From Christensenella sp. (lineage in GTDB: Bacteria; Bacillota; Clostridia; Christensenellales; CAG-917), in assembly GCA_022009775.1 (NCBI GenBank), contig CP091723.1, positions 1,029,121 through 1,093,120 on the forward strand: 64,000 nt of DNA, given 5' to 3'. Made by a program: the position numbers and the translations under genes. This document shows positions 36,176 through 58,150 of this stretch, piece by piece (position 1 is the stretch's first letter; every line of letters begins with the position of its first letter). The notes under the pieces were generated by a model. It made no database searches and was not told where the DNA came from. It saw nothing but the letters and a program-made list of their open reading frames with translations.

Positions 36176-37908
36176 TCAAAAACCGAGTTTTATTTTCTTT
36201 TCGATTTGGAAAGAGAAGTCTTTTTCGCTCGCCGCGTTGTTGAAGTCTACGGCGCAAAGCGTCACGGTTTTTTGACTTTCGAGTTGACTTCTCATAGCCG
36301 CTTTCGCCCACGTTCTTTCAAAAAGATTTCGCACGAAGCGCGCGTTGCTGAATTTCTTTGAGTTCAGAACGTCGTCTGACAGGTTTTCAAAGTATTTTTG
36401 AACGATAGGGTACAAGTCGTCTGCGATTTTGAATTTTTTCGACGACATCGATTTGTATATCTCGAAGAGCTGCTCGCGCGTGAAGTTTGGAAACTCGATC
36501 GTGTAGGGCATTCTGCTTTTTAAGCCCCTGTTGGCGTCCATGAGCTTTTCCATATCGTCGGTGTAGCCTGCCATTATGACTACGAGATCGTCTTTGTGGT
36601 TTTCCATCTCGGATATGAGCGTGTCGATTGCCTCAACGCCGTAGTCGCGCATGTTGTCGTCTCCGCGATAGAGAGAGTACGCCTCGTCGATAAAAAGCAC
36701 CGATCCGTATGCATCGCGGCACATTCCTGACGTTTTGGGCGCGGTTTCTCCGATGTATTGACCGCAGAAATCTCTGCCTTTGTATTCGTATAGATTGCCT
36801 ATGCGCAGCACGCCTTTTTCTTTGAGAATCTTGCCGAGTATTCTCGCAACGGTGGTTTTGCCCGTGCCGGGATTTCCGACAAAGCGCATGTGTAGGCAAG
36901 GGCGGTCAGGTCCGTTTTCCGCCTTGGACAAGCGTATTTGCGCAATGATTTCTTCAATTTGAGCTTTGATTTTTTCGCACCCGACAAGTTGGTCGAGTTG
37001 CGCCATGCCTTCCGATTCGTCTGCAAGAGTGTCGCATATCTTCTTTGCGTCGTTCGTTCCTATGAGCGATGCGTTCTTTGCGCCGTTTGCCACGGCAACG
37101 TATTTTTGTATACGGATTCTTTTACGACTTTCTTTATGGTGTTCAATCCGTAAAATTTGCCGTCGCTTTTTTCCTTGGCGATACGCTTGAAGAAATACTC
37201 CCACGCATTGTCCGACATTTTCATGCCGTATTTTTCAAAGTCGCGTTTTGCGATTTCTTTCGTTTCGGCACGGTCAAAGGGCGGAAAAGACAAAGTCTTG
37301 ATATAAGCCACGTCTTTGAGCGAGTTTTCCACGCGACCGAGCACGTCCTTGTCAACAAAAGGCACTCTGAACACGATGACGTGATTTTCGCTTGCCTTTT
37401 GCACGTCTTTGAGCAACTTTTTGAAGTCTTCGGAGTCGGTCTTGTCAATCCACTTGCTTATATCGAAGCATATCACGCTAGCCTCGTCGTTTTCGATTTT
37501 TCCGATGACGTCGCTTGCGTCGTTCAAATCGTCTTTGGGCTTGTCCGTCATCTTGATTTTGTATTCTTTGACGGGTGCGATAGGTGTCATTTTGGCAAGC
37601 GACAGATCGTTTATGGCAAGCGCAAGTATTTCAAGATATGTTGTCAGTCCGCATCCGTCACCGACAGAGAAGAGATAGCTTTGGGACATAAACACGTCTT
37701 GCGCATTGTTTTTGACCACTTCGGGTGCAATCGCCACAAGTTCTTTTATAAGGCTTTTGAATTCTTGCGCGCCGACAAGCGTGTTGACAAGCTCGAGCGT
37801 GTCGTCAATTGTGTGCGGATCTTGCGACTTGCCGCTGTTGTCGGAATCTTTGTTTTTTGACTCGTCGTTTTCAACGTCCGTATTTGGCTCGCAATCGGAA
37901 AAACTCAA
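36176..37908 (-). CDS. Tandem AAA+ ATPase: degenerate N-terminal AAA-like domain plus CbbX/SpoVK/EccA-type AAA domain (frame broken at a homopolymer)
   Basis: ORFs 37060-37908 and 36176-37204 overlap by 145 nt. They join as ...KKVVKESVYK|KYVAVANGAKNAS... if the A5 run (plus-strand T5 at 37103-37107) gains 1 nt. The C-terminal domain has Walker A GNPGTGKTTVARILGKIL and Walker B VLFIDEAYSL, followed by LVVIMAGY. The N-terminal domain has degenerate equivalents (GDGCGLTT, VICFDISKW). Confidence 0.75.
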
Positions 37909-38141
37909 TGCCGAAAGATTTGTCTTTCCGTATTTTTGCGCAAAGAACGTCGAAATTTTGTTTTTGTTTTTTCGTAGTCGTTTTCGTCGACCGCAAGCGT
38001 CAGGTGAAGATAAGATTCGTTGATTTTTTCGATTTTGCCTTTCACAAACCTGTCTTTCAGCACTTCGACGGGGTATTTTGCGTCGTCAATGCGAGTCAGC
38101 ACCCAGTTGTAGTCGAGTTCTATACGCAACGTTTTTTTCAT
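37905..38141 (-). CDS. Small ORF, possibly the true N-terminus of the AAA+ protein
   Basis: 78 aa. Its stop overlaps the TTG start of the next ORF (TTGA). The downstream frame is open through the A-rich tract (plus-strand T-runs at 37956-37972), so a single homopolymer indel would fuse the two. Confidence 0.45.
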   Translation of the reverse strand: MKKTLRIELDYNWVLTRIDDAKYPVEVLKDRFVKGKIEKINESYLHLTLAVDENDYEKTKTKFRRSLRKNTERQIFRH

Positions 38142-38202: not shown

Positions 38203-38312
38203 TATTTTTTTATTGAGAATTTTGCTTTTAGAAATAATGCGCCTTACGGCTGGATGTTTTGATTGCGCTTAGGATGACACGGAGAATTTTGAATTTTACC
38301 GATTATTTCAAA

Positions 38313-38878
38313 TCGGGTGTGGGTGTCCCGCCCGCTTGAATATACCAAGCCGACAATCTTGCGAAATTGTGGCAGGAGTTTTTGTCCGTGATTGAACTGA
38401 TAGCAAAGATTTTCGGCGCGGTTAGAAGAACAAAAGCCTAATGCGGCTCTCAGCGTTGCTTGCTTTCAAGCGATGCCGTTGCCGCAATGACGGCTTTTGT
38501 TCGGGTGTGGGTGTCCCACCCAATCGAAAGTACCAAGCCGACAATCTTGCGAAATTGCGGCAGGAGTTTTTATCCGTGACCAGACTGATAGCAAAGATTT
38601 TCGGCGCGATAGTGGCGGCAAAACCTAGTTTGGCTCTCCGCAATGGGCAGGTGATTGCCCGTTGCGGTTGCCAAAACAACGGCATAAAATCGGGTGTGGG
38701 TGTCCCGCCCGCTTGAATATACCAAGTCGACAATCTTGCGGGATTGCGACAGGAGTTTTTGCCCGTGACTGAACCGATAGCAAAGATTTTCGGCGCGGTT
38801 AGCAGAACAAAAGCCTAATGTGGCTCTCGGCGTTGCTTGCTTGTAAGCGATGCCGTTGCCACAATAACGGCTTTTGTT
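38313..38878 (+). repeat. Tandem array of three ~189 bp units (starts 38313, 38501, 38690), each with four conserved hairpins and an SD-preceded mini-ORF
   Basis: Units share TCGGGTGTGGGTGTCCC...ACCAAGCCGACAATCTTGCGAAATTG.GGCAGGAGTTTTTGTCCGTGA...CTGATAGCAAAGATTTTCGGCGCG. The hairpins are kept by compensatory or G.U-compatible changes. Units 1 and 3 end in a GC stem followed by CTTTTGTT. Confidence 0.9.
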
Positions 38879-39027
38879 CGTGATACACCCAGTGCGTGGC
38901 ACGCGCGTTATTTATATATCTTAACTTATTTAGAGACAAAATTTTAACCATATATACAAGATTTTGGGGTATTTGAAAGAAAAATTGCACAAGATTAAAA
39001 AATATTTATAATTTCATAAAAATTCGC

Positions 39028-39056
39028 TTGACTTTGGTTTTCAAAAATTATATAGT
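39028..39056 (+). promoter_or_regulatory. Putative promoter of the S10 operon
   Basis: TTGACT (39028-39033), 17 nt spacer, TATAGT (39051-39056). An AT-rich UP-like region lies upstream, and a ~95 nt leader with a GC hairpin (CCGTCGC TTTG CGGCGG) lies downstream. Confidence 0.55.
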
Positions 39057-39155
39057 AAACGAGCGTGTCGAAAGGGATACGTGTTTTCCGTCGCTTTGCG
39101 GCGGGTAAAAAATATAAGACACACACGGACAAGTGTTAATATTAGGAGGCTAATA

Positions 39156-39464
39156 ATGGCTGGACAAAAGATCAGAATTAAACTTAAGGCGTATGACCAC
39201 AACCTTATCGACCTTTCTGCAGAAAAGATTGTTGAAACAGTCAAGAAGACGGGTACGAAGGTTTCCGGTCCTATCCCTCTTCCTACGGACAAGGAAGTCA
39301 TCACCATTTTGCGCGCTACTCACAAATACAAAGATAGCCGCGAACAATTTGAACTCAGAACACACAAGCGCTTGATTGATATCTACAACCCCACGAGCAA
39401 GACAGTCGATTCTTTGATGAGACTCGATTTGCCCGCAGGCGTTGACATTTCGATCAAACTCTAA
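39156..39464 (+). CDS. rpsJ: 30S ribosomal protein S10
   Basis: [19 protein letters not shown]... AGGAGG lies 6 nt upstream of ATG 39156. Confidence 0.97.
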
Positions 39465-57739: not shown

Positions 57740-57859
57740 GCCGTCAAATAGCGAATAACTTCGGCAACACCCCATATTCATCAACTCATGTACGTAAGTA
57801 CATTAGGGTTGCTGAATATGGGGTGTTTTCTTGTTCTTCATCTATTTGACGGCTTATGC
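57734..57859 (+). other. 126 nt three-tier inverted repeat that includes the fba stop codon
   Basis: Outer 18 bp stem 57734-57751 / 57842-57859. Middle 15 bp stem 57766-57780 / 57813-57827. Apical ATGTAC GTAA GTACAT at 57788-57803. A second terminator GCCCC AA GGGGC TTTT follows at 57883-57898. Confidence 0.8.
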
Positions 57860-58116
57860 TAACCTACAAGACATTAGGCGATGCCCCAAGGGGCTTTTCC
57901 TTGTTCTTCATCTGCTTTGTGGCGTTAGTTATATATAATAAGTTGAATATGGAGAAAAACATTCCGTCAATAAGTACGCTTCGAATAAGTTTTCTTTCGG
58001 GCGCAACCGAAAAAATTTGTCATTGCGAACGTAAGTGTGGCAATCTCGCGGAAGCGAAATGTCAAACATTAATGCGCTCGTATAGAAATTATTCATCGTT
58101 AATTATTATTAATTGA

Positions 58117-58146
58117 AAAGCCACGGCACGAATTGCCGTGGCTTTG
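58117..58146. terminator. Bidirectional intrinsic terminator
   Basis: AAAGCCACGGCA CGAAT TGCCGTGGCTTT. Confidence 0.85.
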
Positions 58147-58150
58147 AAAG

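Follow-up and report, generated by a model that had tools for sequence, protein, structure and literature searches.

A previously undescribed small interspersed repeat, present as three tandem units ahead of the S10 operon in Christensenella sp., joins a near-invariant 5' domain to a variable terminator-like hairpin

The spacer between a divergent AAA+ gene and the S10 operon of Christensenella sp. carries three tandem copies of a previously undescribed small interspersed repeat. The array was analysed within a 64,000-nt stretch of GenBank assembly GCA_022009775.1 (contig CP091723.1, positions 1,029,121 to 1,093,120 of the forward strand), referred to here as the window, and array positions are given in window coordinates. 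We name the ~190-nt unit, together with its dispersed family, E. The array consists of three local tandem copies of the dispersed element and is not specific to the S10 operon. E is not in Rfam and no published description was found. Being non-coding, multicopy, dispersed and variable in presence between strains, E has the properties of a small interspersed repeat. Comparison of its copies establishes a repeat family, a conserved fold, a genomic distribution, variation between strains and constraint acting on individual copies. From these we infer, with a probability of about 0.5, that E is a new BOX/SPRITE-like family, with a core that would act as plus-strand RNA and end in a bidirectional intrinsic terminator. 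Copies would have spread by module recombination, and unequal crossing-over would have tripled the unit at this site.

The array and its repeat family

Tandem Repeats Finder (TRF) reported a single strong array at 38310-38871 with a period of 188, 3.0 copies and a score of 637. An alignment of the three units over 38313-38880 gave a mean column identity of 89%. An earlier note, made from the letters of the window alone, had described three tandem units of ~189 bp located between a divergent AAA+ operon and the rpsJ promoter. Both the units, with their starts (Table 1), and their placement were borne out, as the array is flanked on one side by the minus-strand AAA+ gene, which starts at 38141, and on the other by a canonical promoter at 39028-39056 that precedes rpsJ. 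An invariant 22-mer and an invariant 17-mer are each found exactly three times in the window, where chance would give 0.00 and 0.09 occurrences, respectively. A sensitive profile search of the window found no further copy of E. Classified by their 3' domains, the three units are of types A-B-A. No tRNA or tmRNA was found in the array region.

E is widely dispersed beyond the window. An exact 19-mer from the most conserved block matched 60 stretches among 185,579 species-representative genomes. The E unit is present at 38 of these loci, and the remaining stretches are chance matches. All 38 loci come from four species represented by metagenome-assembled genomes (MAGs), namely UMGS1043, H07686-L1_cleanbin_000016, SRR1747033_bin.3 and HGM11452, which are labelled as uncultured Clostridia or Clostridiales. 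Copies in these species are mostly solitary and are frequently found at contig ends. A second conserved block matched at least 119 metagenome stretches, nearly all from the human gut. Among the metagenome matches listed, a profile search gave at least 135 hits in at least 104 loci, at least 72 of them full length, and single metagenome contigs carry at least five copies. The loci collected hold at least 163 solo copies or arrays (149 solo, nine double and five triple), and the copy number is roughly 15 to 40 per genome. Four matches of the 17-mer to viral contigs were rejected as chance, since none was confirmed by the profile. The survey of copy number, context and covariation that the earlier note had proposed thus returned 38 MAG loci and more than 100 metagenome loci, and it supports a different fold from the one first drawn. 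A synteny walk through AAA+ homologs of 78-68% identity lost the linkage to rpsJ and found only one further copy. This diverged copy (locus L199) belongs to a different lineage, in which the AAA+ protein is only 68% identical.

The earlier note did not recognise the family, and the search of the array with Rfam 15 likewise gave no match at gathering level. At expectation values up to 10, the best match in Rfam 15 was CopA-like, with 18.5 bits (gathering score 60) and on the minus strand. Rfam searches of 15 related loci returned only signal recognition particle (SRP) RNA, a flavin mononucleotide (FMN) riboswitch and tRNA, all elsewhere in those loci. The companion modules of E described below had no match in Rfam 15 either. 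No publications on the MAG name UMGS1043 were found in the literature. A large Firmicute-type SRP RNA gene adjoins one orthologous E locus (L013 3291-3554, L051 288-551). Its presence in these two loci agrees with the Clostridia taxonomy and provides a taxonomic hint for the poorly classified MAGs.

A conserved fold supported by covariation

Folds of single sequences and of the consensus divide E into three parts, namely the GC-rich hairpin H1, a long-range helix and a nested three-tier 3' hairpin. The long-range helix has 13 bp (GCCGA.C.AAUCUUGC with GCAAAGAUU.U.UCGGC) and encloses ~40 nt of highly conserved sequence as well as a hypervariable loop, GUG-NNNN-RAC. It is 99.7% paired across the family. 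The 3' hairpin of unit 1 spans ~75 nt and consists of an outer stem ACAAAAGCC/GGCTTTTGT (in RNA form ACAAAAGCC/GGCUUUUGU), a middle helix UGCGGC/GCCGCA and a 12-bp inner helix. Among 45 distinct family members (alignment A2), the nested model is 91% paired and 17 pairs have changed on both sides, including five in each helix of the 3' domain. In a more diverse covariance-model alignment, 92% of cells are paired and 38 of 48 pairs have changed on both sides, values that lean toward the nested model because this alignment was fitted to it. None of 500 shuffles reached the values observed in the covariance-model alignment, and slid controls were ~40% paired. The long-range helix is invariant in most copies and covaries in divergent ones. 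GCCGA/UCGGC is replaced by ACCGA/UCGGU in L113 and L186 and by GCAGA/UCUGU in L199, and AAUCUU/AAGAUU is replaced by AAUUUG/CAAAUU in L113, L156, L186 and L199. No covarying column pairs were found inside the 5' domain beyond this helix.

The 3' domain retains its shape across unrelated sequences. The same three-tier hairpin is formed by 3' domains of at least eight unrelated sequence types. Types C to H, as well as copies using the M2 module described below, have a long hairpin of the same kind, whose 5' arm is rich in A and whose 3' arm is rich in U. A covariance model with the nested structure aligns copies with unrelated 3' domains as full-length matches. A long hairpin is present in 129 of 135 distinct 3' tails with a median span of 76 nt, and a tract of at least four U is found on the 3' side in 105 of the 135. 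In the array, a terminator scan identified terminator-like sites at 38475-38494 (unit 1) and 38852-38871 (unit 3). The hairpin and U tract are intact in these two units, and unit 2 has lost both the outer stem and the U tract.

This fold revises the four conserved hairpins per unit (H1 to H4) put forward in the earlier note. H1 was recovered in all three units, including the change from a U.G to a U-A pair. H3 is also a real hairpin, but it is merely the tip of the 12-bp inner helix, which is itself nested in two further helices. H2 has pairs broken in 33 and in 9 of the 45 family members and excludes the long-range helix with its compensatory changes. The replacement of GCCGA/UCGGC by ACCGA/UCGGU breaks H2. 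H4 is terminator-like with a U run in units 1 and 3, as had been described, but it shows no compensatory change, has one pair broken in 15 of the 45 members and competes with the covarying helices. Neither H2 nor H4 represents selected structure.

Strand preference is apparent in the 3' domain. Here, 102 cells have G.U and 27 have A.C, which favours the plus strand, and H1 is ambiguous. The claim that all wobble variants are G.U on the plus strand therefore persists as a tendency only. The minus strand folds with the lower z-score (-4.28 vs -3.34 for the plus strand). The long-range helix and several 3'-domain types are wholly Watson-Crick and hence fold equally well on either strand. A minus-strand -10-like TGGTATATT, previously assigned to each unit, is found in the array only in units 1 and 3 and lacks conservation across the family. 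On the plus strand, a scan for the sigma-70 consensus and inspection of upstream classes found no sigma-70-type promoter conserved in or upstream of the units. Sequences upstream of E copies fall into several unrelated classes. Of the multicopy, individually terminated and structured plus-strand units envisaged earlier, the multicopy family, the conserved structure, most likely read on the plus strand, and the terminator-like ends remain, but not a conserved sigma-70-type promoter for each unit.

A head-to-head chimera was observed in L033 (5361-5622), where an inverted E fragment is fused to a forward copy exactly at the long-range helix arms (...CTGCTGACCGCGCCGA joined to CAATCTTGCG...). The sequence of the junction suggests recombination at the inverted repeat formed by the long-range helix.

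Genomic context and mosaic structure

All copies of E are intergenic. A context census was based on 51 distinct loci, obtained by collapsing orthologous and duplicate loci by their flanking proteins and by correcting the rpsJ locus. E lies between convergent genes at 21 loci and between divergent genes at four. Between genes on the same strand, the element is antisense at 18 loci and sense at eight. Intergenic regions without E in the same loci served as background. Convergent sites are enriched (41% vs 15% in the background, p = 2e-5) and divergent sites are depleted (8% vs 21%, p = 0.02), with the antisense bias in same-strand pairs being suggestive only (p = 0.08). The 3' hairpin faces the 3' end of a gene in 39 of the 51 loci. 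At ~9 loci, the hairpin lies at most 10 nt from the stop codon of the converging gene, which leaves little space for another terminator. The divergent site of the array in the window is thus atypical for the family. More than 90% of E loci are unrelated to ribosomal operons. At the rpsJ locus itself, contigs encoding an identical rpsJ protein have one, two or three units at the same place, and the last unit ends ~280 nt before the rpsJ ATG. Tandem arrays beyond this locus (L164, L161, L181) lie directly upstream of co-oriented genes, and solo copies favour gene 3' ends. The last unit in L164 (1546-1640) is followed at once by a perfect TTGACA-17-TATAAT promoter.

Copies of E are embedded in mosaics of other repeat modules, which include M3, M2 (another long hairpin) and modA. 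M3 is ~150 nt in length with terminal inverted repeats of ~33 bp (CTGTCATCCTGAGCGAAGTCGAAGGATCTAGC...GCTAGATGTTTCGACAGGCTCAACATGACAAG), and its presence is variable between strains (L157, L181, L084, L156). This companion module, and not E, looks like a MITE (miniature inverted-repeat transposable element). H1 is duplicated on both sides of the M3 insertion in L157 relative to L115. Truncated and chimeric E copies also occur. An automated search for filled and empty sites gave mostly noise from repeat-containing flanks. Comparisons of near-identical strains were clean only for L156/L193 and for L199 versus L198 and L200. The near-identical L193 lacks an E copy and an M3 found in L156, which additionally has a second identical E-linker-M3 block. 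In L156 versus L193, the sole clean pair, presence and absence are cleanly bounded inside a small palindrome with no obvious target-site duplication. The diverged copy in L199 (1671-1832, minus strand) is accompanied by M2 and modA modules in the rplA-rplJ spacer. Its close relatives L198 and L200 have M2 modules in this spacer without E, and the spacer is between 518 and 1032 nt long.

E has no terminal inverted repeats of its own, as the 5' end (TCGGGTGTGGG, or CCAAGCC in copies without H1) is unrelated to the 3' end (GGCTTTTGTTC). The earlier note had allowed that the array might turn out to be a known repeat family or a MITE. E is indeed a dispersed intergenic repeat, but it belongs to no known family and lacks such terminal repeats. 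The 38 MAG loci contain 203 flanking open reading frames (ORFs) of at least 100 aa, and no gene for a transposase, TnpB, a recombinase or a reverse transcriptase recurs among them. An all-against-all comparison of these ORFs showed that only orthologous neighbours recur. A guide-RNA-bearing mobile element similar to omega-RNA or bridge-RNA systems was also considered and rejected. Matches between the loop and the flanks are at the level of shuffled sequences (61 vs 62.8 for 4-mers and 15 vs 13.3 for 5-mers), and no enzyme recurs.

Evolutionary constraint on individual copies

The MAG species differ by ~10% in coding DNA. In genes adjoining orthologous E copies, 4-fold synonymous sites differ by 32-48%, or by 15% for the closest pair. 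Orthologous E copies differ by only 4-14% in either domain and mostly evolve 3-9 times slower than the adjacent synonymous sites. Changes in the 5' domain are confined largely to a few hot spots. Divergence so far below the neutral expectation suggests that copies are under purifying selection or undergo gene conversion with one another.

Interpretation and comparison with known repeats

We suggest that E is assembled from an optional H1, a sequence-invariant 5' domain closed by the 13-bp helix and a ~75-nt three-tier hairpin with A and U tracts. Transcription from the 5' side would make the folded 5' domain and halt at the 3' hairpin. The same hairpin would also halt transcription of a gene converging on E. 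Termination in both directions would account for copies gathering at gene 3' ends and avoiding promoter regions. Copies might multiply and rearrange through recombination between shared modules (H1, unit homology) rather than through a transposase acting on inverted-repeat ends. Recombination in the AAA+/S10 spacer could have given the one to three tandem units found in different strains. Because terminators are intact in units 1 and 3 but not in unit 2, the predicted products of the array are one single-unit RNA and one two-unit RNA. The array would also shield the S10 promoter against upstream read-through. Protein binding by the 5' domain is a guess.

The closest parallels are found among the repeats of Streptococcus. 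SPRITE of S. pneumoniae has a U-rich tract and a long stem exceeding that of normal terminators (PMC3049150). SPRITE is also the repeat most strongly enriched between convergent genes, near 3' ends, and no inverted-repeat ends or target duplication were found (PMC3049150). E shares with SPRITE its nature as a small interspersed intergenic repeat of Firmicutes, the long stem with a U-rich tract and the enrichment near 3' ends between convergent genes. Both also have a narrow taxonomic range and cluster with other repeats, and inverted-repeat ends were found in neither. Target duplication was not found for SPRITE and was not obvious in the single clean pair for E. This resemblance is functional only and rests on a comparison by description. 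E differs in adding a ~110-nt part (H1 and the near-invariant 5' domain with its covarying long-range helix), in having a three-tiered hairpin whose sequence was replaced many times, and in forming tandem arrays. BOX is modular, with a tandemly amplified internal unit and a copy number that varies between strains, and some BOX elements were shown to be transcribed (PMC3049150). The host range of BOX and of SPRITE is narrow, each is found nested with other repeats, and they were interpreted as parasitic with some copies co-opted as terminators (PMC3049150). By description, E resembles BOX of S. pneumoniae and S. suis (PMC3049150) as a modular composite with variable tandem amplification (one to three units), extensive predicted RNA folding and clusters nested with other repeats. 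The boxA and boxC ends of BOX pair like inverted repeats and the 45-bp boxB is amplified, whereas the whole 188-nt unit is amplified in E. The ends of E do not pair, pairing terminal modules were not seen, and orthologous copies are measurably constrained.

Other repeat and RNA systems are less similar to E. Repetitive extragenic palindromic (REP) sequences are palindromic units of 20-40 bp that bear a GTAG or CGTC tag and are associated with RAYT transposases (PMC3733652). They are located between convergent or co-directional genes downstream of coding regions, and roles in termination and mRNA stabilisation were proposed (PMC3733652). E is ~190 nt long with two domains, its H1 (CGGGTGTGGGTGTCCCRCCCR, 21 nt) has neither a GTAG nor a CGTC tag, and no RAYT was seen in the flanks of the 38 MAG loci. 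Bacterial interspersed mosaic elements (BIMEs) are mosaic combinations of palindromic intergenic modules. E resembles REP and BIME in forming such mosaics and in its position between convergent or co-directional genes. MITEs such as Correia elements and the bcr1 repeats of the Bacillus cereus group are non-coding, multicopy, intergenic, variable between strains and able to fold as RNA. E differs from MITEs by the lack of terminal inverted repeats and of an evident target-site duplication. Multicopy sibling small RNAs, such as LhrC1-5 in Listeria and Qrr1-5 in Vibrio, have near-identical copies, some of them in tandem, with a conserved body and their own terminator. Each of these copies has a conserved promoter, and a handful of copies occupy fixed loci. 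In contrast, E has no conserved promoter, dozens of copies, truncated and chimeric forms, and a strain-variable presence.

Several observations weigh against E being a transcribed and terminated BOX/SPRITE-like module. Mainly three helix positions carry the strand signal. Intrinsic terminators are typically far shorter and less interrupted than the 3' hairpin of E, in which the U tract doubles as part of the outer stem. The context census rests on crude longest-ORF calls. E is antisense to both neighbours in 18 loci, where minus-strand RNA would be the one most readily made. The lack of a conserved sigma-70-type promoter leaves no evident source of a plus-strand transcript in many contexts. 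The slow evolution of orthologous copies argues for a host-level function, or for gene conversion, over a purely parasitic repeat. A terminator role also leaves the near-invariance of the 5' domain unexplained.

Alternative explanations

E units could instead be host genes for a multicopy trans-acting small RNA or for the RNA of a ribonucleoprotein. The 5' domain would then bind a protein or target RNA, the 3' hairpin would serve merely as a terminator, and additional copies would raise dosage or diversify the loop. We consider this explanation unlikely but credible. Orthologous copies mostly evolving 3-9 times slower than adjacent synonymous sites would be expected of such genes, as would helices that covary around a 5'-domain interior nearly unchanged even in the distant lineage. 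The 3' domain changes its sequence freely and keeps its structure, G.U pairs favour the plus strand, and the copy at the rpsJ locus is retained in all relatives examined. The sequence at the 3' end also carries a putative intrinsic-terminator signature (A tract, hairpin and U tract) across the family. However, no conserved promoter matching the sigma-70 consensus was found, and upstream sequence differs by copy class. Many copies are truncated or chimeric, presence and absence differ between strains, and the distribution resembles that of parasitic or terminator-type repeats (PMC3049150). Conservation of the AGGAG motif and of the loop does not extend to all copies, and gene conversion could mimic purifying selection.

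A more ambitious proposal takes the near-invariant ~80-nt 5' domain as a new RNA fold. The fold might be the RNA component of a ribonucleoprotein that has so far gone unrecognised, or of a system in gut Clostridia that depends on RNA for mobility or defence, with the copies being working genes and not junk. We regard this proposal as speculative and rather improbable. It is raised because the helices covary, the interior is unchanged across lineages more than 30% apart at synonymous sites, and the domain contains a 3-4-nt hypervariable loop. Repeats of the small interspersed kind are usually dismissed as parasitic. E is unusual in joining a freely replaced terminator-like hairpin to a near-invariant 5' domain, with covarying helices and slowly evolving orthologous copies. 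If the 5' domain is a functional RNA, E would represent a new multicopy RNA class in abundant uncultured bacteria of the human gut. Otherwise, E would still provide a well-bounded repeat annotation (model and modules) for genomes whose assemblies break there, and it would exemplify repeat-spread terminators shared by convergent genes.

That E is a non-autonomous mobile element appears quite improbable but deserves to be taken seriously. In that case, an enzyme encoded elsewhere, such as a single-strand DNA transposase, a reverse transcriptase or an RNA-guided recombinase, would recognise the strand-specific core or use it as its RNA cofactor. Mobility would explain the filled and empty sites and the duplicated composite block in near-identical strains, and it is consistent with a high copy number in a narrow clade, a conserved 5' domain with strand-asymmetric structure, and an element carrying no promoter. 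The lack of terminal inverted repeats and of a clear target-site duplication in E speaks against it, as does the failure to find a recurrent enzyme gene among those ORFs of the 38 MAG loci that reach 100 aa. Moreover, the hypervariable loop is not complementary to the flanks, E has at its 3' end a variable terminator hairpin rather than a fixed end or guide, and orthologous copies are kept across species.

The structure might also act on the minus strand or as DNA in a REP/BIME-like manner, for example as a 3' untranslated region stabiliser, an attenuator, or a protein-binding or cruciform site. Such a role is very unlikely, even though the hairpin faces a gene 3' end in 39 of 51 loci, with E antisense to both neighbours in 18, and the z-score is lower on the minus strand (-4.28 vs -3.34). 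The fully Watson-Crick pairing of the long-range helix and of several 3'-domain types would suit it as well. The excess of G.U over A.C in the 3' domain (102 to 27) contradicts such a role, and a minus-strand RNA would have no terminator at its far end. Neither of the REP tags, GTAG and CGTC (PMC3733652), is present in H1, and the sequence invariance of the 5' domain would be left unexplained.

It is extremely unlikely that the array serves specifically the S10 operon or the divergent AAA+ neighbour as a cis-acting regulator or insulator. Every relative examined has at least one unit ~280 nt upstream of the rpsJ ATG, co-oriented promoters closely follow tandem arrays at other loci as well, and another copy lies in the rplA-rplJ spacer of the distant lineage. 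The array, however, is upstream of the S10 promoter and outside the leader, more than 90% of loci have no connection with ribosomal operons, and unit number varies freely between strains.

The likeness to type I toxin-antitoxin loci raised in the earlier note, or the reading of each unit as a small-protein locus, is effectively refuted. In type A units, AGGAG is followed 10 nt later by a GTG that opens a frame of 17 codons, but this sole small ORF is conserved neither in start nor in frame: the start codon is lost in several copies (CCATAA, CCGTTA, CCGTAA, CCCTAT, CCGCGT), a 1-nt deletion shifts the frame in type B units, TTGAT replaces AGGAG in several copies, the invariant stretch has no synonymous variation and the peptide is not hydrophobic.

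Further identities were tried and rejected. ToxI-like type III toxin-antitoxin loci have ~36-nt repeats before an endoribonuclease gene, whereas E units have 188 nt, the neighbours are AAA+ and rpsJ, and most copies are solitary at gene 3' ends. A type II hammerhead ribozyme requires CUGANGA and GAAA cores placed in register around three stems. The unit has GAAA...CUGAUAG with G8/A9 swapped and A6 changed in L113, and no model match was obtained at expectation values up to 10. Ideas of a K-turn, a CsrA-binding site (single AGGA) or an anti-Shine-Dalgarno sequence were dropped by eye, as the motifs are not conserved.

Features of the array region and other observations

Table 1. Positions of E units, their parts and neighbouring features in the window.
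Feature	Position	Strand	Description	Evidence
Unit 1	38313-38500	+	Type A 3' domain; ends GGCTTTTGT then TC	TRF, alignment, nhmmer (207 bits), covariance model (224 bits)
Unit 2	38501-38689	+	Type B 3' domain, "internal" form with degraded outer stem and U tract; ends GGCATAAAA	Alignment, profile
Unit 3	38690-38880	+	Type A 3' domain; ends GGCTTTTGTTC	Alignment, profile, covariance model
H1, GC-rich hairpin	38314-38334 (unit 1), 38502-38522 (unit 2), 38691-38711 (unit 3)	+	Optional in the family; junction between units	
Long-range helix, 5' arm	38349-38362 (unit 1), 38537-38550 (unit 2), 38726-38739 (unit 3)	+	GCCGAC.AATCTTGC	Folding, covariation
Long-range helix, 3' arm	38403-38417 (unit 1), 38591-38605 (unit 2), 38780-38794 (unit 3)	+	GCAAAGATT.TTCGGC	Folding
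Hypervariable loop	38388-38397 (unit 1), 38576-38585 (unit 2), 38765-38774 (unit 3)	+	GTG-NNNN-RAC in otherwise invariant 5' domain	
3' domain, unit 1	38430-38500	+	Three-tier hairpin with A tract and U tract, bidirectional terminator-like	Folding, terminator scan, covariance
3' domain, unit 2	38617-38689	+	Type B; middle and inner helices retained via compensatory changes; outer stem broken, no U tract	
3' domain, unit 3	38807-38877	+	Type A	
Companion-module remnant	38239-38312	+	Right half of M3 (38239-38285) and leader GAATTTTGAATTTTACCG; the leader precedes many E copies	
Hairpin after array	38891-38909	+	Extra terminator-like hairpin and T-rich run directly after the array	
AAA+ gene (SpoVK-like)	36176-38141	-	Divergent; start at 38141; two frameshifts relative to the 655-aa form in relatives	
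S10 promoter, leader and rpsJ	39028-39464	+	Promoter TTGACT-17-TATAGT at 39028-39056; rpsJ at 39156-39464	

The hairpin directly after the array consists of AGTGCGTGGCACGCGCGTT followed by ATTTATATAT and is present in the rpsJ loci of relatives, too. Elsewhere in the window, a convergent intergenic region at 57740-58150 contains other mosaic modules without the E core, namely two M2 modules on the minus strand, modA, an H1-like remnant and an AT-rich block. This module block is followed at ~58118-58146 by a hairpin that resembles a bidirectional terminator. In the S10 leader, a hairpin at 39063-39082 followed by GTTTTCC lies between the promoter and rpsJ and could be an attenuator, with no match to an Rfam leader family. 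The AAA+ gene is broken into three overlapping ORFs by frameshifts in a T-run at ~37956-37971 and at ~37105. These splits reflect either a pseudogene or homopolymer sequencing error. The AAA+ gene in L011 also has the first of the two splits.

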